Positions 10,155 to 31,577 of a stretch of DNA of 37,805 nucleotides are shown in pieces. Source of the stretch: an uncultured Candidatus Saccharibacteria bacterium (GTDB lineage Bacteria > Patescibacteriota > Minisyncoccia > Phycocordibacterales > UBA9973); contig CAYHYF010000001.1 in the NCBI GenBank assembly GCA_964360745.1, positions 1-37,805 on the forward strand. Reading direction: 5' to 3'. Below the pieces are notes generated by a model that had not been told where the DNA came from, did not search any database, and was given only the letters and a program-made list of their open reading frames with translations. The position numbers and the translations under genes were made by a program. The stretch's first letter is position 1; the number at the start of each line of letters is the position of its first letter.

Positions 10155-11513
10155 TTAGATAGCTTCTTTCCAAGATTTTGCATTATCCGATACCCAAATT
10201 TTTCCTGTTGTATTTATTTTACCATCAGATGGTCTCCATCTTTCCCCACTATCCCATCCACCAATTGCTCCACCTATAGAATAAAGTCTATTATTAAAAG
10301 GAATAATTATTTCAGCTAATTCTTCAGAATGAGTTTTTTCCAAGGCGATTGGCTCCATAGGAGTTTTATAAAATTTAGAATATAACATAATTTCATACCA
10401 ATTTGTTTGATCAGGATTTATTTTATCAACAAGTGGCATATACCAAAAACGATATTCAACACTTGTTTCGTTTTCAAGTGCTTGACCTTGATGATTGGAA
10501 TCATGCCTTGGAAAAGATAGTATCATATCATTAAAAATCAATGGTTTATGTACAACTATCCAACCTGGTGGAGTACCATTCTTATATGGATTATATTGAA
10601 CCCAATCCTTACCATCATTTGATGTATAAGTATAAGGTGTCCATGGAGCTCCATCAATCGATGAGAAAAACAAAATTTGATTTTTTAAAGCAATAGCCGA
10701 GTATGTGTATATATAATTTGGATCATCTTTCCACGGTGCTTCTTTTACTTCTTGTGTCCAATTTGCCCCATCTGTTGAAGTCCAGATTCCCTCAATACCG
10801 GAACCATTTAAAAGCCAAAATTTCTTTTGATAATATACAACAATATTACGCCGTGCTTCACCTTTGTAATTCGATGGCAAATCTCCGACACGTTCAAATT
10901 TTTTCATATCTCTCGTTTTATATATACTTGTATCAAATTCATTTTTTGAGTTGTACACACCACCAAATATGTATACAGTATTGTCAGGAGTTTTTACTAA
11001 AGCTGGCATGAATTTAGCCCCCATAATAGTAGACTCAGCCTCTTTCTTCCAATTCTCTCCATCAATTGTGGACCAAATATCAGAAAGAGATTTTTTTGTA
11101 TGTGGAAATTTTGGTTCAATAGATTCACCGAGCAATACAAAAAGTTTTTCACCTTCAATTGGAGTCTTTACGCATTGAGTTGGCTTTTTGGGATCTATTA
11201 TTTCTGGTAAAATTTTTTCACCAAAATTATAATCATCAACAATTTTAGGAACATCTATTTTATTAAAATTTGGAGTCTGTATTTCTGGAATTTGTTCTGA
11301 CTGCCTCGGCATTTCAAAAGCCTCTGGAAGTATACCTGTATTTTCAGGAACTACTACCGCGTCATATGGCATGTCGGGTGGACTAGAAATTAAACCCTCA
11401 TTGTCGGCTTTGGCATATTGTGAAAATAGATACCATAAAAAGAATATGGCAAGTACGGTCAAAATTATGTGTAATTTGAGCTCCCTTCTACCCTTTTGTA
11501 CCCCGGGTTTCAT
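10155..11513 (-). CDS. Membrane-anchored BNR/Asp-box repeat beta-propeller protein (sialidase-like fold)
   Basis: N-terminal TM segment ILTVLAIFFLWYLF. Four SxDxGxxW-type boxes: STIDGENW, TSTDGANW, TSNDGKDW, VSDNAKSW. Confidence 0.6.
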   Translation of the reverse strand: MKPGVQKGRRELKLHIILTVLAIFFLWYLFSQYAKADNEGLISSPPDMPYDAVVVPENTGILPEAFEMPRQSEQIPEIQTPNFNKIDVPKIVDDYNFGEKILPEIIDPKKPTQCVKTPIEGEKLFVLLGESIEPKFPHTKKSLSDIWSTIDGENWKKEAESTIMGAKFMPALVKTPDNTVYIFGGVYNSKNEFDTSIYKTRDMKKFERVGDLPSNYKGEARRNIVVYYQKKFWLLNGSGIEGIWTSTDGANWTQEVKEAPWKDDPNYIYTYSAIALKNQILFFSSIDGAPWTPYTYTSNDGKDWVQYNPYKNGTPPGWIVVHKPLIFNDMILSFPRHDSNHQGQALENETSVEYRFWYMPLVDKINPDQTNWYEIMLYSKFYKTPMEPIALEKTHSEELAEIIIPFNNRLYSIGGAIGGWDSGERWRPSDGKINTTGKIWVSDNAKSWKEAI

Positions 11514-13284: not shown

Positions 13285-13542
13285 TTATTCGTAGATATCT
13301 TTACGATGGCCGAGAGCAAACAAGACAACATCACCACCACTGGTGCGGAATATCCCCCTATAATTTCTGGTTATACGGAAAGAAAAAACTTTATCTGGAG
13401 CAAAACCTTGCAATTTTTTCGTATGAAGCTTTGAGTGGAAAATGTCTTCCGATAACAAAATCTCTTGCTTTGAAAGTAGTATTTTATCTTTTTTGGATAA
13501 AAGTTGTACTTGCTTTTTATAATTTTTAGTCTTCAAAAGCAT
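13285..13542 (-). CDS. Type II toxin, RelE/ParE/YafQ superfamily
   Basis: 85 aa. The C-terminal ...FRITRNYRGIFRTSGGDVVLFALGHRKDIYE is the typical RelE/StbE ending. It lies 3 nt after the antitoxin stop. Confidence 0.8.
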   Translation of the reverse strand: MLLKTKNYKKQVQLLSKKDKILLSKQEILLSEDIFHSKLHTKKLQGFAPDKVFSFRITRNYRGIFRTSGGDVVLFALGHRKDIYE

Positions 13543-13545
13543 AAA

Positions 13546-13773
13546 TTAAAATTCTTTTAGGGAATCCTTGTATGCTTTTAGAATTTCATTTTTATTTAAG
13601 TATGCATCTAGGCTTTCGGTCGGCGTCTTGGATATTTGTATCCCTTGATTTACGACAAATTGTCGCATAGAAGCATTGATAATATCCGAAAGTGAAAACC
13701 CTAAATCCTTTGCTAGATTTTGCGCTTTTATTTTCAAGTCTTTTTTTGTCCGAATCAATATTGTTGTATCCAT
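13546..13773 (-). CDS. Type II antitoxin, RelB/DinJ (ribbon-helix-helix) family
   Basis: MDTTILIRTKKDLKIKAQNLAKDLGFSLSDIINASMRQFV is DinJ-like. The track start at 13791 is TTG and falls inside the promoter, so the ATG at 13773 is preferred. Confidence 0.7.
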   Translation of the reverse strand: MDTTILIRTKKDLKIKAQNLAKDLGFSLSDIINASMRQFVVNQGIQISKTPTESLDAYLNKNEILKAYKDSLKEF

Positions 13774-13780
13774 ATACAAA

Positions 13781-13808
13781 AGTATATACAAACGTATAAA
13801 TAAGTCAA
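13781..13808 (-). promoter_or_regulatory. TA promoter TTGACT-16-TATACT, 7 nt upstream of the ATG, overlapped by TTGTATAT repeats / TATACgtttGTATA palindrome
   Basis: The minus strand reads TTGACTtatttatacgtttgtaTATACTtttgtatATG. Confidence 0.5.
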
Positions 13809-15784: not shown

Positions 15785-17530
15785 CTACTCAATCTCTTTC
15801 CAGCTCTCAATACTCCAAGAACCAGAAGGTCCAGAGCTGAAGCTCGCATTTGCAAGCCCTGATTCATAAGTAATCGTAGCACTATTTTTTAGATTTATAG
15901 TCTTAGCTGTCACTTGTTTTGCACCAGCCGTATTTTCCATCGATACTCCACCATAAGGAGCGATAATAATGACCGAACCTGCTGAATTTTTAAGCGCTAC
16001 AGACTCACTAAGTGTATTTGTAGAAATGACCATAATATAACTACCAGATGTTCCAGATCCCTGAAAGACAGCACTATTGTTTGTAGAAACTGTCCCATCG
16101 ACAATGATAACCCCTCCATCAACACTGTACGAAGGAGCCAATTTAAAAATACTTGAATTATCGATACTTACATTACCTGTTATCCACAAGACTCCCGTGA
16201 CAGTCAAAACAGAACTATTCGCAAGACTTATATTTCCATTAATTTTTGTAGGTCCTATTGATTGAGTTTGAGATCCAGTAAGAGATATTCCGCCTGATGT
16301 ACCACCAGCAAGTGCCGTATCTTTCCAATCTGTAATATTTTGATCAGATACCGGAAAATTTTGTGACACCGGATCAGCTTGAGATGTATCGCATGATTTA
16401 TTATTGCCACTACCGGTTTGGCAGTATATTGTACCTGTCACATTAGCACTTGTGACTGTATGAGCAGATGCATCTCCTGTGCCACCCGTACCCACATCAA
16501 TACCATTTATAGAACCAAAAGACCCATAGGTAGAAACAGAAAAAAATAAATCGGTACTTGATCCTAATTGACTCCATGTACTAGTGCTGACTCTCCCAAT
16601 TTTTGCAGTACCGCTAGTGTATGTTGTATTACCTCCTATTACATAATAATTTGAAGATGAATTTGACGCATCGATTGTGAGCCAATAAGTGGTTCCGGCT
16701 GTAAGCTGTGGATTTGAAGTAAAAGTAATATTTACCCAACCATAATTTGTAGAGACAAGGCTACTTGAAAGTGTGCCTGTCGCTTTAATAGTAGACGATG
16801 GTTTACTACTACTATTGGTCCTAATTGTCACAGTAGCATTTGAGGGAGATCCAACTTTTTTAATATAAACCTGAGCACTGTCTAAATAATAGGTATTGGC
16901 AAGTTGAAAACTTTGTGCCACATCTTCCGTGGATGTCGCATTACCAAAATTGTTATTACTTGCTGGTGTACCAGATCCATTTGACTGATCTACCGCTGTC
17001 GATTGACCATTGGCCGATACGGCTCCACCGGTCACATAATTTTGACTGCTACCGTTTATCGGACCATTTGAATAGATATTGCCGATTATTCCAGCTGTAT
17101 TTTCCATACCCACCCCACCAGTACCTGCCTGCATTCCATAGAAAAATGAAACACCTTCGCTAGTATTTAAAACCATACTGACTTTTCTCTCTCTATTGTC
17201 TGCATCACCTGATGATGAAATTTGTTTTTGATTACTACCCAAATCAGCAATTTCAGTAATCACAGAATAATTTCCTAGCGTTATAGTCTCACTACTGTCT
17301 ATATCCATATTATTTTTTATCCTATACGCGGCATCTTCTACCCCAGATTCTGCCAAGAAATACGACTGTTTGGATTTGACATTATTCTCAGCTACAGCAA
17401 ATTCTTTTAAAATCGGTGCGACTATACCTATGATGATAGTGAGACTTATGAAAAACACAAAAATCACGAGCGTCATCATCGCAGCACCACCTTGCCTTTT
17501 ATTATTTTTTATTTTAAAATCTTTTTTCAT
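15785..17530 (-). CDS. Large PilX-like pilus-associated protein (N-terminal TM anchor, Ser/Thr/Gly/Asn-rich beta-rich body); candidate tip/adhesin component
   Basis: KRQGGAAMMTLVIFVFFISL followed by AENNVKSKQSYFLAESGVEDAAYRI is PilX_N-like. It occupies the last position of a FimT-PilV-PilW-PilX-type gene order. G(V)xMENTAG occurs twice, bracketing about 370 aa. Confidence 0.55.
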   Translation of the reverse strand: MKKDFKIKNNKRQGGAAMMTLVIFVFFISLTIIIGIVAPILKEFAVAENNVKSKQSYFLAESGVEDAAYRIKNNMDIDSSETITLGNYSVITEIADLGSNQKQISSSGDADNRERKVSMVLNTSEGVSFFYGMQAGTGGVGMENTAGIIGNIYSNGPINGSSQNYVTGGAVSANGQSTAVDQSNGSGTPASNNNFGNATSTEDVAQSFQLANTYYLDSAQVYIKKVGSPSNATVTIRTNSSSKPSSTIKATGTLSSSLVSTNYGWVNITFTSNPQLTAGTTYWLTIDASNSSSNYYVIGGNTTYTSGTAKIGRVSTSTWSQLGSSTDLFFSVSTYGSFGSINGIDVGTGGTGDASAHTVTSANVTGTIYCQTGSGNNKSCDTSQADPVSQNFPVSDQNITDWKDTALAGGTSGGISLTGSQTQSIGPTKINGNISLANSSVLTVTGVLWITGNVSIDNSSIFKLAPSYSVDGGVIIVDGTVSTNNSAVFQGSGTSGSYIMVISTNTLSESVALKNSAGSVIIIAPYGGVSMENTAGAKQVTAKTINLKNSATITYESGLANASFSSGPSGSWSIESWKEIE

Positions 17531-17547
17531 TTTTACTTCAATTCAAA

Positions 17548-18057
17548 CTAATATACACCCCTTAATCCCACAGTATTATAAAAATTGGAAGTGTATCCCA
17601 AGCTATCCGTCACAGTCATTTCTATCTTTATTGCTTTACCTCCTGCCGTAGTAATCTTTCTAAAGATGAGTGTACTTACTACAGCCTGACTTCCAGATAC
17701 AGATCCATACAATGTCCCACCTTCATACATATTTACCACACCTGAATCAATCTTAAACTTGATCACCCGTGTCCCACCAGTTGGTGGGACACTACTTATT
17801 TCAAGAATTCCGGAACCAGTATCAAATACACTATTTGCATCTATTATAGTATCAGCTAGTCGTATTTCTCTCGTCATTCTTTCCATTGCAGAATTTCCAG
17901 TCTCAAGCAAATTGCGTTTTGCAAAAGCTGTCTTTGATGCTGACACAGAATGTATAAAAGAATTTACAACCACGACAGATATCAATGCGAAAATTCCAAT
18001 ATATATTATTATTTCTATCAAAGAATAACCTCGGTTTTTAGAATTGAATTTAGCCAT
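17548..18057 (-). CDS. Prepilin-type minor pilin (PilW/GspJ-like)
   Basis: Class III signal NRG|YSLIEIIIYIGIFALISVVV with Glu at +5. The track start at 18063 is TTG; the ATG is at 18057. Confidence 0.7.
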   Translation of the reverse strand: MAKFNSKNRGYSLIEIIIYIGIFALISVVVVNSFIHSVSASKTAFAKRNLLETGNSAMERMTREIRLADTIIDANSVFDTGSGILEISSVPPTGGTRVIKFKIDSGVVNMYEGGTLYGSVSGSQAVVSTLIFRKITTAGGKAIKIEMTVTDSLGYTSNFYNTVGLRGVY

Positions 18058-18059
18058 AA

Positions 18060-18560
18060 TCAATTAAATAAATCTGTCACATAAAATGATAAATTTTTAT
18101 TTACCACACCCGAAGATGTAGACCATGATACATTTACGGCGACTTCTCTCACGCCAGTATCAGTCGTCCCCGAGATTGCGAGATCATCATTACCATCACG
18201 GTATGCAGAATTTAAAACTATTGTCCTTGTAAATATATTATCTATGCTATTTGTCGTCGTAGAAAGTGACCACAAATCAGTATTTGTATCATAATAAAGA
18301 TAGTAATTTGTACCTATGACCAAGCCACTTATGTCGCTCCAATCATTATCGCGAATAGTTTTTACGGCTTCAGCACCTTCTTCAAGTAAATATCCAGCTT
18401 GTGCTTGCTTGAGTGCGCGGTCAGAAAGCTGTAATGATTTTTGTGTGACGGATACAAGAGCAAGGGCTAAAATTGAAATGAGTGCTGTAGCAATCACGAC
18501 TTCGACTAAGACAAAGCCTTTTTTATTTAAATTATTTTTAAAAGATAATTTTATTTTCAT
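18060..18560 (-). CDS. Prepilin-type minor pilin (PilV/GspI-like)
   Basis: Class III signal KKG|FVLVEVVIATALISILALAL with Glu at +5. Confidence 0.7.
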   Translation of the reverse strand: MKIKLSFKNNLNKKGFVLVEVVIATALISILALALVSVTQKSLQLSDRALKQAQAGYLLEEGAEAVKTIRDNDWSDISGLVIGTNYYLYYDTNTDLWSLSTTTNSIDNIFTRTIVLNSAYRDGNDDLAISGTTDTGVREVAVNVSWSTSSGVVNKNLSFYVTDLFN

Positions 18561-18563
18561 AAA

Positions 18564-19049
18564 TTAATTTGAACTTATCAAACCAGTCCTTACAATCGTA
18601 ATGACTTTATTTTTTGTTGCGTCACTTGCAAGCTCTAGTGTGATTGTACCATAGTCATTTGTGTCACCAGAAAGTTTATCAAAAGTAATAGTCTCACTAC
18701 CAGAAATTAAATCTATATTATCTGCTGGCAAGATAACGCTAGCATCAAAAATGACTTCTTTATTACCTACTTCACCTTCAGTATATGTGCCACCTTTATA
18801 TAAGGTAGCCTTATCTTCTTCAAAAAACACATTGTAATAATCACTGTCCACTCCTGCCAAAGTTTTTGCACGAGCTTCATTTAATAAAGCTACGATATTA
18901 TTCCCAGTGTCTCTCAATGTTTGTGATTTTTTAAAGTCAGAAAGTATCGGCAACGCCACAACTAAGATAATCGCAAGAATACCAATCGAAATCAATACCT
19001 CTATCATTGTTAGACCTTTTATTGTTTTTATTTTTTTCATTTTTTTCAT
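18564..19049 (-). CDS. Prepilin-type minor pilin (FimT/GspH-like)
   Basis: Class III signal IKG|LTMIEVLISIGILAIILVV, then ...NNIVALLNEARAKTL as in GspH/FimT. Confidence 0.7.
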   Translation of the reverse strand: MKKMKKIKTIKGLTMIEVLISIGILAIILVVALPILSDFKKSQTLRDTGNNIVALLNEARAKTLAGVDSDYYNVFFEEDKATLYKGGTYTEGEVGNKEVIFDASVILPADNIDLISGSETITFDKLSGDTNDYGTITLELASDATKNKVITIVRTGLISSN

Positions 19050-19053
19050 TTTA

Positions 19054-20268
19054 TTAGCCTATATGTTCGAGTAATGAATACATCGGAGTGAGCATCGACA
19101 CAGCAAAAAATCCCACGGCTACTCCGATAAAGATCATAAGTACAGGCTCGACTATTGTAGATAAATCTTTTGTTTTAGTCTCTACCTCTTCTTCGTAAAA
19201 GATAGCCACATCGAGCAACATATCAGAAAGCTTACCTGTCTCTTCACCCACCTCTACCATCTCACTCATCATTATAGGATAGAGGTTTGTGTACTCTTTA
19301 AAAACCCCAGAGAGCGTTTCCCCTTTTTCTACAGATTTTATAGATTTTGCAATAACTATTTTATAATACTCATTGGTCAAAACATCTTCTGTAATAGAAA
19401 GAGCTTTCGACATTGGAACCCCAGCTTTAAGTAATGACGATATTGTCCTTGATGTTCTAGCTGTATTTATTTCTTTTATGATCGTGCCGATGATAGGAAG
19501 ATGTAATGCTATGAGACTTAAGTATTTTTGTGTCTTTTTATTTTTCAATAATACCATAAACAACCCTACGAGGATTATCAAGCTCCAAAAAAATGCCATT
19601 GTATGATTTTTTAAAGTATCTGAAATAAAAATCACAAATTTTGTAGACGGTGGAAGCTCGGCTCCGATTGATTTGAAAGTACTTGTAAGTGTAGGCACCA
19701 CATATATGAGCATCAATACCCCCACCATAAAAATCGCGCACATTATGATGATCGGATATGTCATAGCACTTTTTACTTTTTTTCTAAGAGCATAGCTTTT
19801 TTTCATATTTTCTCCAATTTCTGCAAGTGTGCTTGAAAGATTCCCAGATTCTTCTCCAGCACGAGTCATCGATACGGCAAGAGTGGAAAAAGTCGAAGGA
19901 GATTTCTCCATACCGGTAGACAACGTACCTCCTTTACTTATCGTATCTATAAGCATCTCAATGACAAATTTAAATTTTGTATTTTTAGTTTGTTTTGAAA
20001 TTACAGAAAGTGCCCTATTGAGTGCCAATCCTGCCTGAAGCATCCCACTCAGATTTTTTGTAAAATTTATTTTTTCTCGAAGTGGGACTGTACTAAAATT
20101 TAATTTTTTAATAAAATCTAAAACACTACCTTTACTTGCGTCGACGATAGCTATAGGCACCTCGCCCATATCACGAAGCATCTTTGCTGCAGCAAATTTA
20201 TCTGATGCCTCGACGACACCTTTTGTGATCTCACCACTTTTTGATTTTACTTTATAATTAAATTTCAT
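19054..20268 (-). CDS. pilC: Type IV pilus / T2SS platform protein (GspF/PilC family)
   Basis: 404 aa with two GspF-type repeats and three TM segments. C-terminal ...EPVLMIFIGVAVGFFAVSMLTPMY is typical. Confidence 0.9.
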   Translation of the reverse strand: MKFNYKVKSKSGEITKGVVEASDKFAAAKMLRDMGEVPIAIVDASKGSVLDFIKKLNFSTVPLREKINFTKNLSGMLQAGLALNRALSVISKQTKNTKFKFVIEMLIDTISKGGTLSTGMEKSPSTFSTLAVSMTRAGEESGNLSSTLAEIGENMKKSYALRKKVKSAMTYPIIIMCAIFMVGVLMLIYVVPTLTSTFKSIGAELPPSTKFVIFISDTLKNHTMAFFWSLIILVGLFMVLLKNKKTQKYLSLIALHLPIIGTIIKEINTARTSRTISSLLKAGVPMSKALSITEDVLTNEYYKIVIAKSIKSVEKGETLSGVFKEYTNLYPIMMSEMVEVGEETGKLSDMLLDVAIFYEEEVETKTKDLSTIVEPVLMIFIGVAVGFFAVSMLTPMYSLLEHIG

Positions 20269-20279
20269 CTCTTTATTTC

Positions 20280-20312
20280 GTGCTATGTGCTATGTGCTAT
20301 GTGCTATGTGCT
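20280..20312. repeat. Heptanucleotide tandem repeat (GTGCTAT) x4.7 filling the pilB-pilC intergenic spacer
   Basis: gtgctatgtgctatgtgctatgtgctatgtgct read directly. Confidence 0.9.
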
Positions 20313-20313
20313 T

Positions 20314-22065
20314 CTACTCCGAAACCACGCGCAATACTTCTTCTGTTGTCGTGATACCTTGTGCTGCTAAAAAAACTCCATCTTCAAGCATCGTCATCAT
20401 ATTTTCAGCACGAGCTTGTTTTTCAATATCATCCGAAGAAGATCCTTTTAAAATTAATTCTTTAATACTTGCAGTCACACGCATCACTTCGTGAATTCCG
20501 ATTCGTCCCTTATACCCATCAGGAGATTCGTCATTTTTTATAGCTTTGTAAAAAGGTATTACGCTCCAAGTAGCATCATCTTTTACTACTTTTTCTTCTT
20601 TTAAAAACTTAAGAACTTTATCCATATCCACAATTTTCTCCAATGCATTCATCTCATTGTCACTTAAAAAATATTGTTCTTTTTCTTCAGCAAGTTTTCT
20701 TACCAATCTTTGTGCAATCACTGTCTTCACTGTGGAAATAATTAGAAATGGCTCAACACCCATATCAATCATGCGAGGTATTGCACCTGATGCAGAATTG
20801 GTGTGTATTGTAGAAAGCACCAAATGTCCAGTAAGAGCTGCGTTGATGGCCAATGATGCAGTCTCGCCATCACGAATTTCCCCCACCATTATAATGTCGG
20901 GATCTTGACGAAGAAGTGTACGTAAACCATTTGCAAAAGTAAGACCAATCTCAGATTTTGTTTGAGTCTGATTTATTCTATTCATTTGATATTCAATAGG
21001 GTCTTCGATCGTAGAAATATTTACTTCTGGTGTATTTAAAATATCGAGCATTGTATATAAAGTGGTCGTCTTACCAGAACCCGTAGGACCTGAAGCTAGC
21101 ACCATACCCGAACGTTGCTTCATCCCTTCGTGAATTCTTTCTAGTGCTTCTCCATGAAAACCCAATCCTTCTAAATTGAAACCATGAGAATTTTCTCGCA
21201 AAATACGAATTACGATTTTTTCTCCATAATATGTAGGTAAAGTTGAAACACGAAAAGACACATTACCCTCACTCCCTGAAATTTTAAATCTACCGTCTTG
21301 AGGGAGACGCTTTTCATCAAGTTTTAAATTTGAAAGCACTTTGATACGAGCAGAAATTCCAGACGCTGTATCTTTGGGCAGTGTCATTGCATCGTGTAAA
21401 ATACCATCTATTCTATACCTCACAATTACCGAACCCTCTGATGGCTCAATGTGAATATCGGACCCGCCTTGCAAAATTGCATGGGAGATGAGTGTGTCCA
21501 CAATTTTTACAATTGGCAAATCTTCCGCAAGTGCCTTGAGCTCTTTTTCTGTTTTTTCTTCACCATTATCATCATTTATGGCTTTGATTGATTTTGATTC
21601 TTTTTTTATAATATCTTCAAAATCCGCCTCAAGACTTTTTTTGTATTGAGCCAAAGCATCTTTTATAGAATCAGAGCTTGTGAGTCGTGGTAAAATTTTC
21701 CCTCCGACTTTTTTCTTTACAAATTCAATAACTGGCAAATCATCTACATCTAACATCGCCACCTCAAGACCATTGTCTGTCTTTTTGTATGCAATGATAT
21801 TGTTGTTTCTAGCGATTGGCTCTGGTATGAGTGACAATACTTTTGGATCTATTTTCTCCCCCTTGAGACTAATGAACGGAATACCAAAAACCACCGCTTG
21901 CATACTCCGCAAATCTTTTTCTGTAAGCTTGCCATCAGAAAGCAAAACATCTCCGATTGATTGCTTACTTGAAATTGCTTTTCTTTCTGCCATTGCAAGA
22001 TCGGTCTTGTTTACCAATCCAGATTCTGCTATAAGCTCAACTAATTTTTTATCATTTATTTTCAT
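20314..22065 (-). CDS. pilB: Type IV pilus assembly ATPase (GspE/PilB family) with N-terminal T2SSE_N domain
   Basis: Walker A GPTGSGKTTT, Walker B DPDIIMVGEIRD, His box TGHLVLSTIHT. The track start at 22131 is TTG; the ATG at 22065 (MKINDKK...) is preferred. Confidence 0.9.
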   Translation of the reverse strand: MKINDKKLVELIAESGLVNKTDLAMAERKAISSKQSIGDVLLSDGKLTEKDLRSMQAVVFGIPFISLKGEKIDPKVLSLIPEPIARNNNIIAYKKTDNGLEVAMLDVDDLPVIEFVKKKVGGKILPRLTSSDSIKDALAQYKKSLEADFEDIIKKESKSIKAINDDNGEEKTEKELKALAEDLPIVKIVDTLISHAILQGGSDIHIEPSEGSVIVRYRIDGILHDAMTLPKDTASGISARIKVLSNLKLDEKRLPQDGRFKISGSEGNVSFRVSTLPTYYGEKIVIRILRENSHGFNLEGLGFHGEALERIHEGMKQRSGMVLASGPTGSGKTTTLYTMLDILNTPEVNISTIEDPIEYQMNRINQTQTKSEIGLTFANGLRTLLRQDPDIIMVGEIRDGETASLAINAALTGHLVLSTIHTNSASGAIPRMIDMGVEPFLIISTVKTVIAQRLVRKLAEEKEQYFLSDNEMNALEKIVDMDKVLKFLKEEKVVKDDATWSVIPFYKAIKNDESPDGYKGRIGIHEVMRVTASIKELILKGSSSDDIEKQARAENMMTMLEDGVFLAAQGITTTEEVLRVVSE

Positions 22066-22162
22066 AAATGAATGGCACCTCTGTCTCGGGAGATGCATAA
22101 GTAATTGCTCCAAATATAGACACTGCCACAATTATTAATATAATGATTAGAAATTTTTTCAT
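22052..22162 (-). CDS. Candidate 36-codon micro-ORF (signal-peptide/TM-like) overlapping the pilB start
   Basis: My own translation is MKKFLIIILIIVAVSIFGAITYASPETEVPFIYENK*. It overlaps the pilB ATG by 14 nt in another frame and lies 13 nt downstream of an extended -10 box. Confidence 0.35.
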   Translation of the reverse strand: MKKFLIIILIIVAVSIFGAITYASPETEVPFIYENK

Positions 22163-22290: not shown

Positions 22291-22402
22291 ATAAGAAAGT
22301 ATCTTCTTTGATATGTCAATATCGTTATATTTCATTTCGTTGTTTTTGGGGTGAATAGAGCGGGTAAAAATGCCAATTCTATTCACCCTTAAAACCACAG
22401 TT

Positions 22403-23116
22403 ATGAAAAAAACAATACTATTAATGATTTTTCTGGCAATAGTTGCTGGAAATGTTTTTGCAGAAGAAGAGGTTCGTGTTGAAACAAAGACCGTTATTGT
22501 AAATAATGATGGTTCAGAAACGCTCTTAGTGCTTGATGCCTTAATGAGTTGTTCAGGTACAAATTGGATTCTAACTTCCGTTTTACTTGAAGCAGAAGAA
22601 GAGTCTATTGTAAAAATCACCGATTTAAGACATATCGTTCTTAGTTTTAATGATGAAATGTATGATTTTTGGGATAATCCTGAATTTTATTTTGAAACAT
22701 TTTGGATTTCCACATGGATGGAATTTTCAAAACACGGAAAAAAAATGAAAATTCATGCAAATTGTCAGAAAAACGGAGAATTGATAATGAAAGTTAGGTT
22801 AACCTTTAAAAAAAATCTGGAATCAACCTATCAAACAATCAATCTAGTAGATCAAAAAGTTTTCATCAACGAAGAACCTTTGGTTGGAGTTCAAAATATT
22901 TCAAACGAAATTTTACTTTGCCAAGATTACTCGGCAAGAAAAATCGTCCTAAAAAATATTCCAATCAACAAAGAAATCTATGTTCACAATTTAAGTGGGC
23001 AAATAGTATTGAAAAAAGAAATTCTGACCGACGAAGTCGTGCTGGATTTCTATAATCTACCAAAAGGTTTGTACATAATATCAGTACAAAACAAAAACTT
23101 TAAGGTAGTGTTGTAA
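22403..23116 (+). CDS. Secreted protein with C-terminal domain resembling a T9SS type-A (Por) sorting domain
   Basis: Signal peptide MKKTILLMIFLAIVAGNVFA. The C-terminus IYVHNLSGQIVLKKEILTDEVVLDFYNLPKGLYIISVQNKNFKVVL has the xIYNxxGQxV...LDxSxLxxGxYxxxx...K pattern. Confidence 0.45.
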   Translation: MKKTILLMIFLAIVAGNVFAEEEVRVETKTVIVNNDGSETLLVLDALMSCSGTNWILTSVLLEAEEESIVKITDLRHIVLSFNDEMYDFWDNPEFYFETFWISTWMEFSKHGKKMKIHANCQKNGELIMKVRLTFKKNLESTYQTINLVDQKVFINEEPLVGVQNISNEILLCQDYSARKIVLKNIPINKEIYVHNLSGQIVLKKEILTDEVVLDFYNLPKGLYIISVQNKNFKVVL

Positions 23117-23140: not shown

Positions 23141-23172
23141 AAAAGCCCGACATATTTTATATGCCGGGCTTA
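23141..23172. terminator. Bidirectional terminator between convergent genes (AGCCCG...CGGGCT)
   Basis: aaaagcccgacatattttatatgccgggctt read directly. Confidence 0.6.
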
Positions 23173-23198: not shown

Positions 23199-24485
23199 TT
23201 AATAAGAAATTCTCACAAAAGCAGGGCCTCCATTTCCACTTTTCACATCTTGAAAACAAGTCCATTTGACTTGAAAATCACATTTTAATCCTTGAACAGA
23301 TGGAACAGGAATGTTGGTCATTTCTCCGCCGTGAGAAACTTTTATTGTATAAGTTTCATTTGGACTTGCCGTCACTTTTGCTTTTATGTATCCACCTCCA
23401 CCTCCACCTGCATATCCTTTTTGAGAATCTAGACAATTATCATCAAAACATCCACCATTTAATGTATAAGATGATGATCCACCATGCCCACTCGCTCCAG
23501 ATCCTCCAGATCCACGCACGCCATCATACCCATTTTTTCCTTTAAATGGTATTCCATTTTTAGGAGCCGGATCAAAATCACAAGTAGGAACAAATCCGGG
23601 ATTTCCGCCTATTTGTCCAGGGATATATGCTTTTCCACTTCCTCCACTTCCTCCTTCTCCTCCTTTGCCACCAAATCCACCAGACAATAAATATTTTGAA
23701 GTATTTGATCCTGCACAAAGAACACTGGCAGTTTGGCTTTGTTGTCCCGAACTGCCATTTCCTCCATTGTCTCCATTTGCATAAGTTGTAAAATTGACTT
23801 TAGAGTTTGTTGGTGTGTCCACTGTGCCACCAGACCCACCTGTGTTTGTAGAGGTCGGCGCTTTGCCACCAAAAGCTTTTGCTATCACAGTACTACCTTT
23901 TAAAATAGATGCCGATCCTCCATCGGAACAATAAAAATCGTTACCCGAAACACAAGTGGAGCTACTATCAGGTGATCTATTTGTAGAACTACTACTTCCC
24001 TCAAAGTATCCCATACCTCCAGCACCCCAAAGTTCCACTGTAAATTCTGTGACGTTTGCAGGAACTATAAATGTATAAGTGGTAAATGGATTATTTCCTG
24101 TATGATAAAATTCAATCCAACCACAGTCTGATATATCTCCATCTTGATTTGCGCATACTTGCCTTCCTTCATCTTTTAAAGATGATAGTCGTATTGCACC
24201 TCTTACGTCTAATGCGACTTGTGGATTTATTTCCGTATTTGTGCCTGTGGCTTTTACTCCAAGACCAAGCCACCCAGAAGACAATACTCTTGCCAATTTA
24301 CTTCCATTCATATCTCCAGCAATCAAGCTATTGATAGCCAGTCCTCCTGCTTTAGTCTGACTTGTGGCAAGCTGTGTAATTGGTAATTCAAAAGATGAAA
24401 CAATATTTGAAGTAAAACCAAATATTAAAAATAAAGTTGCCAGAAGTATTGTAGTATTAAATTTTTTCTTCATTGTATTTTTCAT
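23199..24485 (-). CDS. Secreted glycine-rich-domain protein (LWGAGG head), paralogue of 24864..26312
   Basis: A signal peptide, then the handle ALDVRGAIRLSSL...QVCANQDGDISDCG, then YTFIVPANVTEFTVELWGAGGMGY, Gly runs, and GYAGGGGGGYIKAKV...GGPAFVRISY. Confidence 0.6.
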   Translation of the reverse strand: MKNTMKKKFNTTILLATLFLIFGFTSNIVSSFELPITQLATSQTKAGGLAINSLIAGDMNGSKLARVLSSGWLGLGVKATGTNTEINPQVALDVRGAIRLSSLKDEGRQVCANQDGDISDCGWIEFYHTGNNPFTTYTFIVPANVTEFTVELWGAGGMGYFEGSSSSTNRSPDSSSTCVSGNDFYCSDGGSASILKGSTVIAKAFGGKAPTSTNTGGSGGTVDTPTNSKVNFTTYANGDNGGNGSSGQQSQTASVLCAGSNTSKYLLSGGFGGKGGEGGSGGSGKAYIPGQIGGNPGFVPTCDFDPAPKNGIPFKGKNGYDGVRGSGGSGASGHGGSSSYTLNGGCFDDNCLDSQKGYAGGGGGGYIKAKVTASPNETYTIKVSHGGEMTNIPVPSVQGLKCDFQVKWTCFQDVKSGNGGPAFVRISY

Positions 24486-24486
24486 A

Positions 24487-24858
24487 TTAATTGCATCTTA
24501 CTAATACACCACCCGCACCTGCACAAATCTTAGAATTGTTTGACGGTGTGCCAGACAAAGAGCTTGATTTAATATCTCCATCCACCACCATTCGTACCGA
24601 TGATACAGGACCAAGATTACTACCTACACTCACATTACCATAAGAATTGACTTGAAAAGAATTTGCAGTGACACCAGCAGAGAAAGCTTTCACACTCAAA
24701 GTGGCATTTTTTATTTGATTTTCATTACCTTCGTGTATTGGATTTTTTGAATCACTACTAGACGATGGAGCATTTGTATTATCTGTAAATGCAATAATCG
24801 CAGAAAAAGAAGCGAGTAGTGAAAACGATATTAAAATTGTATAAAAAGTTTTTTTCAT
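24487..24858 (-). CDS. Small secreted protein consisting only of the shared Cys-clasp handle module
   Basis: Signal peptide MKKTFYTILISFSLLASFSAIIA. It ends ...GNVSVGSNLGPVSSVRMVVDGDIKSSSLSGTPSNNSKICAGAGGVLVRCN. Confidence 0.55.
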   Translation of the reverse strand: MKKTFYTILISFSLLASFSAIIAFTDNTNAPSSSSDSKNPIHEGNENQIKNATLSVKAFSAGVTANSFQVNSYGNVSVGSNLGPVSSVRMVVDGDIKSSSLSGTPSNNSKICAGAGGVLVRCN

Positions 24859-24863
24859 ATTAA

Positions 24864-26312
24864 TTAATTTCCATAAATAAATTCAACTTTCACTTTTCCA
24901 GGCCCTCCTTTACCAGAAACTGCTCCACCACCAAGTTCATTTTTCTCACAACCAGTACCTGTACAACTTTTGATTTGTGGCACACCGCCTCTGCCTGCTT
25001 TTATGTAAAATACTTGAGATGAAGATACAGGCACAGTAGCATAAATATATGACCCAGCACCGCCACCAGAAGATGATATTTGTCCCTTACACAATTCAGA
25101 AGATGGATAAACATTATTGCAAGTAGAAGTATCCGTTGATGCCGATACTCCACCCTTACCACCAAATCCACTGCCACCAGCACTGAGGGTCGCTCCGTTC
25201 ACGCCATTTCCTCCAGGACGATTATTTTTCATATCAGCAGGGACATGATTATCACTAGTAGTATCTTTTTTATTGCAATCAAGATAAGTCTGAGAATCTG
25301 GATCACCAGTCAAAAAATTCCAATAAGATCCTCCTCCATATTCCACACTAGAAATTGGTCCACCCTTTCCACCAGTACCACCATTTACTTTACTACCTTG
25401 GTATGGCGCTCCGCCTTTTCCGCCAATATTTCCAGTGCCCCCACGCAATACGTAGTACGTTGTTCCTCCACAACTGCCAGTCTTGACTGATGTCGGATTT
25501 CCATTGAAAGAACTTGGTGGAATTTCCCCGTCTCCACCATTCGCTTTTGTATATATTGTAGCCCCACCACTAGTGATATAGGTAATAGCTTCACCTCCTT
25601 TACCTGCCACATTTGATATAATTGATCCAGCACCTCCATTTGCTGTAAGAGAAACATTTGCTCCTTCAAAGAAAGAGCTGTCGCCGTCATCACCAAATGT
25701 CTCCACATTTGCACTTCCATACCCTGCACCTCCTGCACCCCAAAGATATACATTGAGAGCTGTCACACCTTCCGGTATTATCAACGAATAAATTCCTGAT
25801 TCTGAATCACTACTTGAAGGTGCTATCGGATCAAATTCAATACTTTGACCACAGCGTTCTATCACCCCTATCAGGCTTGCGCACAATGGAATCTTGCCAG
25901 CAGTATTTCTTTTAAAATCAAGGGCTCTGATTGTGCCTTTAATTACAATGTTGTTGTTGCCGTCTTTTTTTTCTAAAATATCAAGCACGATACCACTTCC
26001 AGCATTTGGTCTTCCCACAGACATTGAGCCTACTTCATTTATTCTTGCAAAATCAACCGGTGTATCATCGGCTGGAGTACCACCTGGAATTGTCCCCACC
26101 AGAAGTGATTTAAGCCAAAGCCTACCAAAATTACTATCGAGTGGTTCACCTTTTGTCTGATTACCCGATCCGGCATCTACGAGCTTAGTGACAGATGTAG
26201 AAATCGAAGCTGATCTTAAAAAAGCAGATGCATAAGAAGCAGTCAAGGCTATTGCAATCCCTAAAAATATTGCTGAGGCCGGTTTTAAAATTATCTTTAA
26301 TATTTTTTTCAT
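24864..26312 (-). CDS. Secreted glycine-rich-domain protein (LWGAGG head)
   Basis: A signal/TM segment, then the handle ...IKGTIRALDF...KIPLCASLIGVIERCG, then YSLIIPEGVTALNVYLWGAGGAGYG, Gly runs, and SSSGGGAGSYIYATV...GGPGKVKVEFIY. Confidence 0.6.
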   Translation of the reverse strand: MKKILKIILKPASAIFLGIAIALTASYASAFLRSASISTSVTKLVDAGSGNQTKGEPLDSNFGRLWLKSLLVGTIPGGTPADDTPVDFARINEVGSMSVGRPNAGSGIVLDILEKKDGNNNIVIKGTIRALDFKRNTAGKIPLCASLIGVIERCGQSIEFDPIAPSSSDSESGIYSLIIPEGVTALNVYLWGAGGAGYGSANVETFGDDGDSSFFEGANVSLTANGGAGSIISNVAGKGGEAITYITSGGATIYTKANGGDGEIPPSSFNGNPTSVKTGSCGGTTYYVLRGGTGNIGGKGGAPYQGSKVNGGTGGKGGPISSVEYGGGSYWNFLTGDPDSQTYLDCNKKDTTSDNHVPADMKNNRPGGNGVNGATLSAGGSGFGGKGGVSASTDTSTCNNVYPSSELCKGQISSSGGGAGSYIYATVPVSSSQVFYIKAGRGGVPQIKSCTGTGCEKNELGGGAVSGKGGPGKVKVEFIYGN

Positions 26313-26331
26313 ATACTAATTATATTATACA

Positions 26332-27954
26332 CTAAAATGGTTTGTATATTGGTTTTATAGATGCACCAGCTTGAGCTGGACAGAAATTTAAAGTGAAATT
26401 GTAATTAGATTCATTAAATGGAACAACATTGATATTGACAACCACTGGATCTTTTTTATTATTTGTCTTTGCAATATAATCTGCCTCACTCACTGTATAT
26501 TTAGCTTCAATCGTATTATAAAGTCCCGTAATTGAATCAAGTTTAAAGCTATTATTTGACAACGTAAAACCTGTACCAGAGAAAGAAAGATCTATTGGTG
26601 AGGTATTGTATCCAAAATAAGGAGTTGCTTTCAATATCACTTTTGCAACATAATTTGTACCATCTTTAACAAAAACTCCTCCATATTTTTCATTTGTTTT
26701 TGTGGTTCCACACCTTGTGTCACCAGTAATCTTATAAAATGGCTGACAAATTTTAGCGGTGACATTTTGTGATTTATGATTTGCTTTATTTGATGTACCA
26801 TTTGTACATTGCATATTATATATTGTATCGTGTCCACCAAAACCACTATCGGTAAAAGTATTTCCTGATGTAGTTCCCAATAAACTATTATCACCATATA
26901 TATCACAAGAGGGAGAAATTCCTTTCATATTTAGAATATCGAGTGTAGGTTTATTAGTTTTAAGAATACAACTAAATGGTACATAAAGTTCTGGTTCAAA
27001 TGTATTCACGACCACAGTCCACACTGCAGATTTTGTAATAAATCCATCGGTACACTCTATCTTGAAAGTGGTAGATGTATTTGTTGTCTGTCCATCATTA
27101 TTATTGTTATTATGTGATATATCAATACCAGTAATGGTTCCCGATGTACCAGAAACTGTCTTTGAATTCCACCAAGAGTCCCAAACCGAGCTACCATTTC
27201 CAAAAGTACTAGTGCTTGTATTTGTACAACTCGTGGGTGTAAAATTTTTTGCAGACCAAGTAAGACTAATTTCATTTCCAGCGACAGTGTAAGCATCTCC
27301 ATTTAAGGTCATACTTTCTCCGTTGTTTAAGTCAGCCACAAAGACTCCACCCTCATTTACATCATACGGTGAATTTTTTGGATTTAAATCAATCCATCCT
27401 ACGACTTCATCACCCCACCAAAAACCATTTGATTTACCATCTATTTTATAGACATCTACACTATATGTAGGATTCATCGTCACTTTATTTATTGTATCAA
27501 TATTTGCATTGTATGAGCCACCACCCAAAGATATCCATCCGTCCCAACCACCACTATTGTATTGTCCTTTTTCAGGAACGACAAAAGCTTGTGCCCAACC
27601 ACCTTTTGCCCATTTATTTTGAAAATTTGAACAAGGACTTGAAATATTTGGTGGACAACCACCCCATTTTTGTGGATTAAAATTTATGATTCCAATACTT
27701 TTACTATATGCTGTGCCACTGACTATGTTTGTGGCAATATCTAACGTCAGACCGTGAGAAGGCACCGTACTGTCACAAGTCTGTGAATCACTAGGATCTG
27801 CACAATTATTAAAACTAATCCAACCAATATTATCACTCCAAGCATTACCAAATACATTTTCTCCTCCACCGGCAAAAACTGGAGTAAAATTTAAAAAAAA
27901 TATAAAAAATAATATTGGGGAAACATATAAAAAAGTTTTATAAAAAAGTTTCAT
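26332..27954 (-). CDS. Secreted Cys-containing protein with four N-terminal GWIS(F/L)N-type repeats
   Basis: Signal peptide ending FAGGG. Repeats GNAWSDNIGWISFNN, GTAYSKSIGIINFNP, GGWDGWISLGG and GFWWGDEVVGWIDLNP. 12 Cys residues. Confidence 0.55.
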   Translation of the reverse strand: MKLFYKTFLYVSPILFFIFFLNFTPVFAGGGENVFGNAWSDNIGWISFNNCADPSDSQTCDSTVPSHGLTLDIATNIVSGTAYSKSIGIINFNPQKWGGCPPNISSPCSNFQNKWAKGGWAQAFVVPEKGQYNSGGWDGWISLGGGSYNANIDTINKVTMNPTYSVDVYKIDGKSNGFWWGDEVVGWIDLNPKNSPYDVNEGGVFVADLNNGESMTLNGDAYTVAGNEISLTWSAKNFTPTSCTNTSTSTFGNGSSVWDSWWNSKTVSGTSGTITGIDISHNNNNNDGQTTNTSTTFKIECTDGFITKSAVWTVVVNTFEPELYVPFSCILKTNKPTLDILNMKGISPSCDIYGDNSLLGTTSGNTFTDSGFGGHDTIYNMQCTNGTSNKANHKSQNVTAKICQPFYKITGDTRCGTTKTNEKYGGVFVKDGTNYVAKVILKATPYFGYNTSPIDLSFSGTGFTLSNNSFKLDSITGLYNTIEAKYTVSEADYIAKTNNKKDPVVVNINVVPFNESNYNFTLNFCPAQAGASIKPIYKPF

Positions 27955-27957
27955 ATT

Positions 27958-28314
27958 TTAATTTGGAGCATTTAATATTGAATTAATTTCTTCTTCTGTT
28001 TTCGTAGTTTTATTTTGTAAAGAAGTATCTTTATTAGACAAACTGTTTATATACTGAAGTTTTTCTTCCTCTGTAAGTACTGTTGAACTTTGTTTATCAA
28101 AAGGAGCGCCAAGTTTTTCTAAAACATTCATTCTTTCTTCGTTTGTAATGACCTGATCCTCTTCATTTTTATTTACTTGTTTTTTGTAAATTAGAAAATA
28201 TCCCAACAATATGACTGCTACTAGGACAACGACGATTAAAACAACTTTTTTAATTTTAATTTCTTTATTTTCTTTAATATTTGTAGTATTTATATTTTTT
28301 TCATCAGTATCCAT
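27958..28314 (-). CDS. Small bitopic membrane protein, first gene of the glycine-rich operon
   Basis: K/E-rich N-terminus and a single TM segment VVLIVVVLVAVILLGYFLIY. The track start at 28347 is TTG; the ATG at 28314 is preferred, and TGgTAAAAT lies 10 nt upstream of it. Confidence 0.55.
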   Translation of the reverse strand: MDTDEKNINTTNIKENKEIKIKKVVLIVVVLVAVILLGYFLIYKKQVNKNEEDQVITNEERMNVLEKLGAPFDKQSSTVLTEEEKLQYINSLSNKDTSLQNKTTKTEEEINSILNAPN

Positions 28315-28379
28315 ATGTCTATCTATTTTACCACACCTATCTTGCAAAAAAAAGTAAAATAATGTATTATGTGTGGATT

Positions 28380-31283: not shown

Positions 31284-31577
31284 ATGGATGAAAATAATAA
31301 TACAATGGGTCAAATGGGTACAGATCAAAAAAAAGGAAGCGGTGCGCTTGTAGGATCTGTGATAATCGTAATCATCATAATCATTGCTGGTATTTATGTA
31401 TTTAAAAATGCAAAAACACAACAAACAGAAGACGTAGATACTATAAACGATTCTGTGGTTAACGATCTAGATACTCAAGGTGATGGAGACGAACTTGTAG
31501 ATATCGAAAGTGATCTTAATGCGACAAATTTAGATGAAGTAGTTCCAGGGGTTGAAACTGAGGTATCTTCTAAATAA
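31284..31577 (+). CDS. Small single-TM protein with acidic C-terminal tail
   Basis: TM segment LVGSVIIVIIIIIAGIYVF followed by a D/E-rich tail. Confidence 0.5.
   Translation: MDENNNTMGQMGTDQKKGSGALVGSVIIVIIIIIAGIYVFKNAKTQQTEDVDTINDSVVNDLDTQGDGDELVDIESDLNATNLDEVVPGVETEVSSK

Follow-up and report, generated by a model that had tools for sequence, protein, structure and literature searches.

A conserved operon for predicted Sec-exported, possibly pilus-attached surface proteins in a Paceibacteria-type bacterium of the candidate phyla radiation

Contig CAYHYF010000001.1, a complete public contig of 37,805 bp that was analyzed at its full length (the window), carries a compact minus-strand operon of five genes, g1–g5, next to a type IV pilus (T4P) operon. 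We read this conserved chromosomal operon of a Paceibacteria-type bacterium of the candidate phyla radiation (CPR) as coding for a Sec-exported cell-surface adhesion module that is possibly attached to the pilus, a reading we favor tentatively and at somewhat less than an even chance. Two of its building blocks appear to be new, namely an N-terminal module (N-module) common to g3, g4 and g5 and the protein family to which g2 belongs, while the glycine-rich domain (GRD) in the heads of g3 and g5 is known; taken together, the products would be surface adhesins that depend on Sec, or accessory proteins of the pilus. Every cultivated member of the Patescibacteria lives attached to another microbe, and for most lineages, Paceibacteria included, the molecules behind host recognition are unknown. 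The locus offers candidates for this role in two exported proteins with heads of the phage-receptor-binding type, and adds an undescribed N-module found on many CPR surface proteins as well as an undescribed g2 family whose genes repeatedly occur together with pilus genes and whose proteins close with a conserved tail. Homologs of the locus proteins come from Nomurabacteria, Paceibacteria and Patescibacteria assemblies; relative loci are numbered L001–L030, and g6 denotes the convergent neighbor of the operon. The five genes are the following.

27958..28314, minus strand: g1, 118 aa, bitopic membrane protein.
26332..27954, minus strand: g2, 540 aa, predicted secreted, Trp-repeat N-domain and immunoglobulin (Ig)-like domains.
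24864..26312, minus strand: g3, 482 aa, predicted secreted, N-module and TNF-like/glycine-rich head.
24487..24858, minus strand: g4, 123 aa, predicted secreted, N-module alone.
23199..24485, minus strand: g5, 428 aa, predicted secreted, N-module and TNF-like/glycine-rich head.

As in the preliminary description of this stretch, the five open reading frames (ORFs) are found at exactly these positions with gaps of 3, 19, 5 and 1 nt, the first product is a small bitopic membrane protein (one transmembrane helix by hydropathy), and products 2–5 combine predicted Sec-type signal peptides with paired cysteines (12, 8, 2 and 10 in g2, g3, g4 and g5, all even counts). Because each of the five genes has orthologs in syntenic contigs, at 37–52% identity, they are not chance ORFs, and the cluster is indeed kept in relatives. 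Signal peptides were called by a heuristic (charge, hydropathy and cleavage-site residues) and not by SignalP: g2–g5 and their orthologs show 2–4 Lys/Arg residues, a hydrophobic core with a mean Kyte–Doolittle value of 2.3–3.5 and small-residue cleavage sites, exemplified in the g3 family by ...ASYVSA with cleavage after the final residue. Lipobox, LPXTG motif, C-terminal transmembrane segment and class III pilin signal are absent from every product. The idea that g3–g5 are cryptic pilins was rejected since they have no class III signal (G/[FM]xxxE, the slash marking the cleavage site) and start with ordinary n-h-c signal peptides with AXA-type sites.

The N-termini of g3, g4 and g5 comprise a common module of ~120–150 aa, which in g3 reaches ~residue 154 and ends in C144-X9-C154, the corresponding ends being C112-X9-C122 in g4 and C111-X9-C121 in g5. 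Because g4 aligns only with the N-termini of g3 and g5 (blastp E 3e-3 and 2e-4, only ~120 residues aligned) and ends at the same CX9C pair, the three genes share one N-terminal module, to which two of them add a head; g4, made up of a signal peptide and the N-module only (3e-26 against the N-module hidden Markov model, HMM), is a head-less paralog of g3 and g5. It always lies between two headed paralogs in syntenic loci, and likewise in L028, where proteins of 411, 111 and 319 aa follow in this order. The preliminary description had called products 2–5 glycine-rich/repeat proteins, but g2 (9.8% Gly) and g4 (8.1% Gly) are not glycine-rich, and it had overlooked the shared N-module, the nature of g4 as the N-module alone, the pilus linkage of the g2 family and the fact that g6 travels with the block.

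Many matches of the family profile cover only positions 4–140, and these N-module-only matches fall into stand-alone proteins of 123–160 aa, comparable to g4, and larger ones that continue into other C-terminal domains. Besides a signal peptide, N-module proteins have in common the stretch 'P..N...P[IL]N....Q.K.G.L' and the terminal hairpin 'CAD..G.L..C'. The heads they carry include GRD (L012 and L028), phage baseplate Gp10_C (L028) and InlB B-repeats with FN3 (L014), and searches of Pfam, NCBIfam and PDB gave no relatives of the N-module itself. Judged by these matches, the N-module is a widespread, secretion-linked CPR module that bears many different heads. In the L028 copies a GNVGIGTTxPxxKLEV motif was also observed; a GP38 match for the 411-aa protein of that locus, taken from a precomputed record, was not reproduced by hmmscan and was discarded.

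Modular phage receptor-binding cassettes, in which a shared shaft carries exchangeable tips, are built likewise, one conserved N-module being combined here with exchangeable heads across genomes; such cassettes sometimes include a small assembly chaperone, and here the small accessory gene g4 stands between the headed genes. They differ from the locus in that virion context is missing here and in that g4 is a truncated paralog, not a Tfa- or gp38-type chaperone. The N-module was considered as a phage-shaft homolog, but with PHROG tail or tail-fiber matches in only 2 of 23 N-module proteins and no PDB relative it was left as a weak resemblance.

The C-terminal parts of g3 and g5 are of a different kind. 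The two are full-length paralogs (blastp 3e-30), and the motifs quoted earlier for a head shared by the 482-aa and 428-aa proteins are present, although two C-terminal endings had been assigned to the wrong proteins. Their heads (~310 C-terminal residues; in g3 a TNF-like plus glycine-rich domain at ~residues 165–480) consist of a beta-sandwich start and end (…VTALNVYLWGAGGAGYG … VKVEFIY) around ~8–10 conserved glycine-rich motifs. Across g3 and g5 orthologs, the latter coming from L001–L004 and L007, invariant glycine blocks are G192-G197, G226-227, G239-240, G291-301, G379-388, G416-420, G442-443 and G467-469, and column entropy amounts to 0.3–0.9 within the glycine motifs versus 1.4–2.0 between them. 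In Pam3 gp24, TNF-like and GRD domains recognize the host receptor by means of conserved glycine stems and variable tips (PMC9608196), and the alternation of conserved glycines and variable segments in g3 and g5 follows the same pattern as this receptor-binding tip (PMC9608196).

A profile of the g3/g5 family searched against 1.84 billion representatives retrieved only 160 proteins, ~30 of which are full-length. Pfam PF21722 (Gly_rich_2) is matched by only 2 of 11 g3/g5 family members and by 43 of the 121 distant relatives found with the profile (best 2.3e-14), 5 of the 121 matching PF12810 (ALK_LTK_GRD), and it is found above cutoff in N-module proteins of L012 (24.4 bits) and L028 (36.1 bits). 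The AlphaFold2 model of g3 reaches a predicted local distance difference test (pLDDT) score of 70–93 over most of residues 170–310 and 420–480. When submitted to Foldseek, it returned GRD proteins as all of the top 12 PDB matches, which are weak (ALK, Pam3 gp24 and a Bxb1 tail-tip protein), and in BFVD, which holds predicted viral structures, a best match at E 3.9e-10 and TM-score 0.64 on a 236-aa target, with 57 matches at E ≤ 1e-3 that are mostly named glycine-rich domain proteins. The predicted fold of the g3 head is a TNF-like beta-sandwich bearing glycine-rich segments, and the C-terminal halves of g3 and g5 can be placed, from profile and model matches, at a remote position in the GRD superfamily, to which ALK/LTK ectodomains and phage fiber tips belong; the pattern named in the preliminary description recurs both in the Pfam matches of distant relatives and in Foldseek. 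Three other searches were unproductive: a word-indexed homolog search with the g3 plus g5 profile was dominated by glycine words and gained one sequence, a GTDB genome scan with the g3-only alignment yielded low-complexity patterns and no confirmed locus, and a PDB sequence search with the GRD profile found only artificial Gly-Ser linkers.

Known GRD proteins combine a TNF-like part with a polyglycine-II lattice. In their best structural matches g3 and g5 are like GRD phage fiber tips (gp24 of cyanophage Pam3 and gp38 of Salmonella phage S16) and ALK/LTK, but they differ from these in being cellular, chromosomal and Sec-exported, and in that their heads sit on a CPR-specific N-module where those of their relatives have a phage shaft, a baseplate-docking helix or a receptor kinase. 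In sequence, the relation to known GRD proteins is remote, with no tblastn matches in phages, and the tandem arrangement of two GRD paralogs with a head-less copy is seen here, unlike in known GRD systems.

Heads of the phage receptor-binding protein type, the two N-module proteins that touch PHROG tail-fiber or tail families and a weak match of g1 to an Rz-like spanin PHROG (E 0.006) would suit a prophage remnant or domesticated tail-fiber cassette whose genes encode phage receptor-binding proteins. We find such an origin scarcely credible. The 37.8 kb contain no capsid, tail, lysis or integrase genes and consist of housekeeping or pilus genes throughout (outside the block and the pilus operon: class II RNR, RecJ, PGK, TIM, NusA, pyrophosphatase, trigger factor, ClpP and RNase Y), the block occupies the same chromosomal slot between NusA and PilB/TIM in many genomes, and its GC content is like that of its surroundings. 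Relatives of the locus proteins were neither confirmed in IMG/VR nor found by tblastn against 50,697 phage genomes, g2–g6 gave no PHROG matches, and the products carry predicted Sec signal peptides, which phage fibers normally lack. Prophage and tailocin origins were rejected on the strength of the housekeeping and T4P genes of the window and the lack of viral relatives, and the earlier statement that phage context is missing stands.

The second new component, g2, has a predicted signal peptide and an N-domain of ~170 aa comprising four Trp-rich repeats of the type G-x-A-W-S-x-N-x-G-W-I-x-F-N. Twelve full-length orthologs have this four-repeat N-domain in common, together with 12 Cys and an invariant C-terminus, ...FC...KPxYKPF-COOH, in which P535, Y537, P539 and F540 are invariant in the ortholog alignment. 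In the AlphaFold2 model (pLDDT 73) a beta-rich N-domain is followed by ~three Ig-like sandwiches in the C-terminal two thirds, and the last residues fall below pLDDT 50 in the monomer; Foldseek gave generic Ig-like matches only, and Pfam none at E ≤ 1. Across the CPR, the N-domain (g2-N) is found in many proteins whose middle domains differ, PKD being one example, and an aromatic-x-[E/P] tail closes 72% of 75 g2-family members versus 9% of background ORFs (64% versus 1.4% with a preceding Pro). From alignment and model, g2 is best described as a member of a separate CPR family with Trp-repeat N-domain, predicted Ig-like middle and conserved C-terminal tail.

What ties this family to pili is gene neighborhood. 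T4P genes lie at most 8 kb from the g2 family in 16 of 26 loci, the g2-family gene being directly upstream of PilB in L004–L007 and L029, and in L022, L023 and L025 a g2-N protein sits between PilD and minor pilins; N-module genes adjoin the family in 14 of 22 loci. Since the g2 family accompanies pilus genes in some genomes, N-module genes in others and both of them in the window, it forms the common denominator of the two. The T4P operon, noted before as a neighbor, does adjoin the block and may be more than that, given g2-family members inside canonical T4P operons elsewhere, yet the module of L028 has no pilus genes nearby.

Two known pilus-associated systems resemble g2 in part. PilC/PilY1, like g2, is a large non-pilin protein with a signal peptidase I-type signal, a variable middle and a short conserved C-terminal tail that is of low confidence in the monomer model, and the g2 family is often encoded with minor pilins. 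In PilC/PilY1 a 12-residue plug, disordered in monomer models, binds the minor pilin PilK by beta-strand addition (bioRxiv 10.64898/2026.09.18.752573). The conserved domain of g2 is, however, N-terminal and Trp-rich and not C-terminal as in PilC/PilY1, and the tail sequence differs. Like g2, PilX2/PilX1 of Saccharibacteria TM7x, candidate T4P adhesins without PilD signal, are Patescibacteria proteins that are encoded in pilus loci and combine a non-pilin signal peptide with a large C-terminal domain of the binding type, proposed to act in host binding (PMC12206443); they are, however, pilin-like lollipop proteins with beta-jelly-roll or beta-propeller heads, whereas g2–g5 have no pilin helix and other folds.

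In the mechanism we propose, g3, g4 and g5 would be exported, freed of their signal peptides and associated via their common module into a stalk or fiber, which g1 and/or g2 would hold at the cell surface. As in PilC/PilY1, the C-terminal tail of g2 would add a beta-strand to the protein on which it docks, for which the minor-pilin complex is the most plausible choice, and in the heads of g3 and g5 the variable loops that separate the glycine motifs would bind a ligand carried by the host or partner cell. Docking of the g2 tail into a minor pilin is suggested indirectly by the invariant tail, the family-wide tail motif and the low pLDDT of the tail in the monomer, and the adjacent pilus operon is a possible partner. 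T4P drive host binding in cultivated Patescibacteria, and cultivated Saccharibacteria require them for it (PMC12206443). A role in host or partner contact, as put forward in the preliminary description, is what we infer for the locus as well, and no description of the gene set, the N-module or the g2 family was found in the literature, so that the earlier view that the set corresponds to no described system holds. A bolder version, on which we place little weight, is a modular CPR host-recognition system that is built like a phage host-range cassette and mounted on the cell's own T4P: g2, as a PilY1 analog, would plug its tail into the minor-pilin tip complex and carry, directly or via g1, N-module fibers whose exchangeable phage-type heads set partner specificity, with head-less g4 as spacer or cap. 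Should the contacts of the proposed mechanism hold, the locus would tie pilus tips to exchangeable recognition heads and provide sequence markers for host range in uncultured CPR bacteria; should they fail, it still marks out three protein families that lack annotation and are frequent in the surface-protein islands of the CPR.

The arrangement of the relatives bears directly on the pilus part of this proposal. About ten related contigs carry the gene set again, and the unrelated L028 has it in rearranged form with no pilus genes nearby; the layouts are as follows, with (-) marking the orientation of g6.

L001: NusA, g1, g2, g3, g4, g5, g6(-), TIM; T4P operon absent at this position.
L002: g2, g3, g4, g5, g6(-), PilB...
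L003: g1, g3, g4, g5, g6(-); g2 and T4P absent.
L004 and L007: NusA, g1, g3, g4, g5, g6(-), g2, PilB, PilC, pilins, TIM, PGK.
L005, L006, L008 and L026: reduced, with g1-like, g4-like and one GRD protein; g2 beside PilB.
L022, L023 and L025 (Falkowbacteria-type): PilB, PilC, three PilA, PilD, g2-N protein, minor pilins; N-module genes absent.
L028, 4140-8945 of a 489-kb contig (GC 0.48): two operons in divergent orientation; pilus genes absent within 8 kb.
L028, minus strand: N-module proteins of 411, 111 and 319 aa, the 111-aa one head-less and the 319-aa one with a GRD head.
L028, plus strand: g1-like, N-module plus Gp10_C, g2-N protein.

As can be seen, the five genes do not form an invariable unit: g2 changes position and g6 travels with the block. 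The five-gene unit of the preliminary description is a real, compact operon in the window, but L004 and L007 have g2 beside PilB, L003 has no g2, and g6 is syntenic with the block. The Falkowbacteria-type stretch L022 3351-13534, and likewise L023 and L025, was observed to be a compact, complete T4P operon with two bitopic proteins first and four minor pilins last; the records of L023 and L025 say 'Gammaproteobacteria' while the operon is almost identical to that of L022, which suggests mislabeled metagenome-assembled genomes.

Several points weigh against the reading of a pilus-attached adhesion module. Ten of the 26 g2-family loci have no pilus genes within 8 kb, nor do the full module of L028 and the g2-N protein of L030, and L001 and L003 lack the T4P operon at the locus, L003 also g2. 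The adjacency counts are not independent, because much of them comes from related genomes with NusA...TIM synteny. The beta-propeller of PilC/PilY1 (IPR008707 / Neisseria_PilC) is absent from g2, which has no sequence similarity to these proteins, and for want of this propeller g2 would at most work like PilY1 and is not a member of that family. As for the heads, g3 scores 23.6 bits against PF21722, below the gathering cutoff of 24.3, g5 has no direct glycine-rich match in Pfam, and the PDB matches of g3 in Foldseek are weak (E 1.7e-3 to 0.7, TM-score 0.1–0.2). The AlphaFold2 model of the g3 N-module is very poor (pLDDT 25–40) and gives neither its fold nor its oligomeric state, cleavage of the signal peptides is predicted by heuristics, and the contacts among the locus proteins and with pili are a proposal.

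Part of these data would also be accommodated by a pilus-independent surface fiber or adhesin layer, in which g1 and g2 would fasten assemblies of N-module proteins, perhaps trimers like phage fibers, to the membrane or cell wall, pilus proximity reflecting only the conserved gene order of small CPR genomes. L028, with its g1-like, g2-N, one head-less and three headed N-module proteins and no T4P genes within 8 kb, speaks for this arrangement, as do the lack of an adjacent T4P operon in L001 and L003, the g2-N plus N-module genes without PilB/PilC nearby in L009, L010, L012, L013, L016 and L020, and the NusA...TIM/PGK frame, whose synteny extends over many genomes; judged by their pattern, and with no support from Pfam, the Trp/Gly hairpin-like repeats of g2 could be wall- or glycan-binding. 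Synteny of the NusA slot cannot explain the link between g2 and pili, however, because g2-N proteins also sit in Falkowbacteria-type T4P operons of a different architecture that have no N-module genes, and 16 of 26 loci with T4P genes within 8 kb are far above expectation for a random gene in a ~1 Mb genome. We judge the pilus-independent layer doubtful, if a serious contender.

The products could also be secreted non-adhesins, either envelope- or S-layer-associated components or soluble binding or effector proteins (lectin- or bacteriocin-like) aimed at other cells. What is established so far are export signals and binding-type folds; since g2–g6 have no anchoring signal, release into the medium is possible, and the searches found neither an enzymatic nor a toxin domain, leaving the range of functions wide. 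Against this, GRD, Gp10_C, FN3 and InlB-repeat heads on one and the same module suit interchangeable recognition better than an envelope structure, the variable inter-motif loops suit ligand recognition, the constant company of membrane-anchored g1 argues for surface retention, and the lack of a toxin domain speaks against a bacteriocin. We consider secreted non-adhesins improbable and retain, with the reservations given, the reading that the module is exported by Sec, serves adhesion and may be attached to the pilus.

The membrane protein g1 is predicted to be N-in with a single transmembrane helix at ~residues 23–41 (hydropathy). A longer form from a TTG start at 28347 is possible; the ATG at 28314 is favored because orthologs are 118–120 aa long. 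In the ortholog alignment the ectodomain shows 2–3 short helical repeats of the form [LM][TS]x[EQ][EQ][KR]xx[IL][LI]xx[LF], an example being LTDQQKLDLLNSL. g1 opens the block in L001, L003, L004 and L007, and g1-like genes are also present in L005, L012, L015, L016, L018 and L028. It matches no Pfam family, and a PDB profile search gave a weak match to protein A helical repeats (E 2e-4). The idea of an LTXXQ (Spy/CpxP/ZraP-like) chaperone was abandoned, as 0 of 12 g1 orthologs match an LTXXQ-type Pfam family at E ≤ 1 and the PDB profile was of no help. For a possible relationship to the bitopic proteins that precede PilB in operons of the Falkowbacteria type, hhalign gave a probability of 51%. 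Elsewhere in the window, 31284-31577 (plus strand) encodes a 97-aa bitopic protein with weak likeness to g1 (HMM E 3.7e-6), which is kept downstream of NusA-PPase in L001, L005, L006, L012, L015 and L016 and has an acidic C-terminal half in place of g1-type repeats.

Transcription of g1–g5 as a single unit is likely from the spacing of the genes and from a terminator-like hairpin found 28 nt downstream of the g5 stop codon, between the convergent g5 and g6:

23143..23171, minus strand: intrinsic-terminator-like hairpin, 13-bp stem with 6 G-C pairs, then a T-run.

No comparable terminator lies between g1 and g5. Cotranscription is graded only likely because promoter-like sites are not enriched in the locus (32 versus 26.7 expected), and for the same reason a consensus match ahead of g3 (26348-26319) was not used as an internal promoter. 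Diversity-generating retroelements and invertible or shufflon-like repeats are absent from the locus, which contains only short AT-rich chance repeats, and the window gave no tRNA or Rfam matches.

Around the operon, the following features were identified.

22370..23116, plus strand: g6, convergent 248-aa predicted secreted beta-rich protein with Por_Secre_tail-type C-terminal domain.
15785..22131, minus strand: type IV pilus operon (Pfam T2SSE, T2SSF, N_methyl), outside the five-gene transcript.
20314-22131, minus strand: PilB, pilus operon.
19054-20268, minus strand: PilC, pilus operon.
18564-19049, 18060-18560 and 17548-18063, minus strand: three minor-type pilins, pilus operon.
15785-17530, minus strand: 581-aa protein, last gene of the pilus operon, with PilX-like N-terminus and choice-of-anchor R domain (NF041539, 36.8 bits).

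Class III signals were read in the pilus operon as G/LTMIEV, G/FVLVEV and G/YSLIEI (slash as above). The 581-aa protein, whose PilX-like N-terminus reads ...QSYFLAESGVEDAAYRI, may be a large minor pilin or a tip protein. Operons of minor-type pilins with a PilX-like protein are the kind that encodes pilY1 in Proteobacteria. Major pilin, PilD, PilM/N/O and PilT were found nowhere in the 37.8-kb contig.

g6 matches TIGR04183 (Por_Secre_tail, the sorting domain of type IX secretion cargo) with 32.7 bits against a cutoff of 23, and Pfam PF18962 with 23.6 bits, below the cutoff of 27. By the same heuristic as above, its N-terminus shows a basic n-region, a hydrophobic core and a small-residue cleavage site, which are kept in orthologs. 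The latter adjoin the block in L001–L004 and L007, and in L005 a 582-aa FN3 plus Por_Secre_tail protein takes the place of g6. To our knowledge, a type IX secretion system is neither known nor expected in CPR bacteria.

Two further stretches of the window deserve mention. At 13285-13791 (minus strand), between the PGK gene and a 249-aa ORF, two adjacent small ORFs of 85 aa and ~75–81 aa lie in an otherwise ORF-poor stretch of 800 bp; a toxin–antitoxin pair, suggested only by size and arrangement, was not retained, PDB sequence searches having come back empty. At 10155-11513 (minus strand), a 452-aa protein without Pfam match combines an N-terminal signal anchor with a W/Y-rich repeat region, and may be another CPR surface protein.

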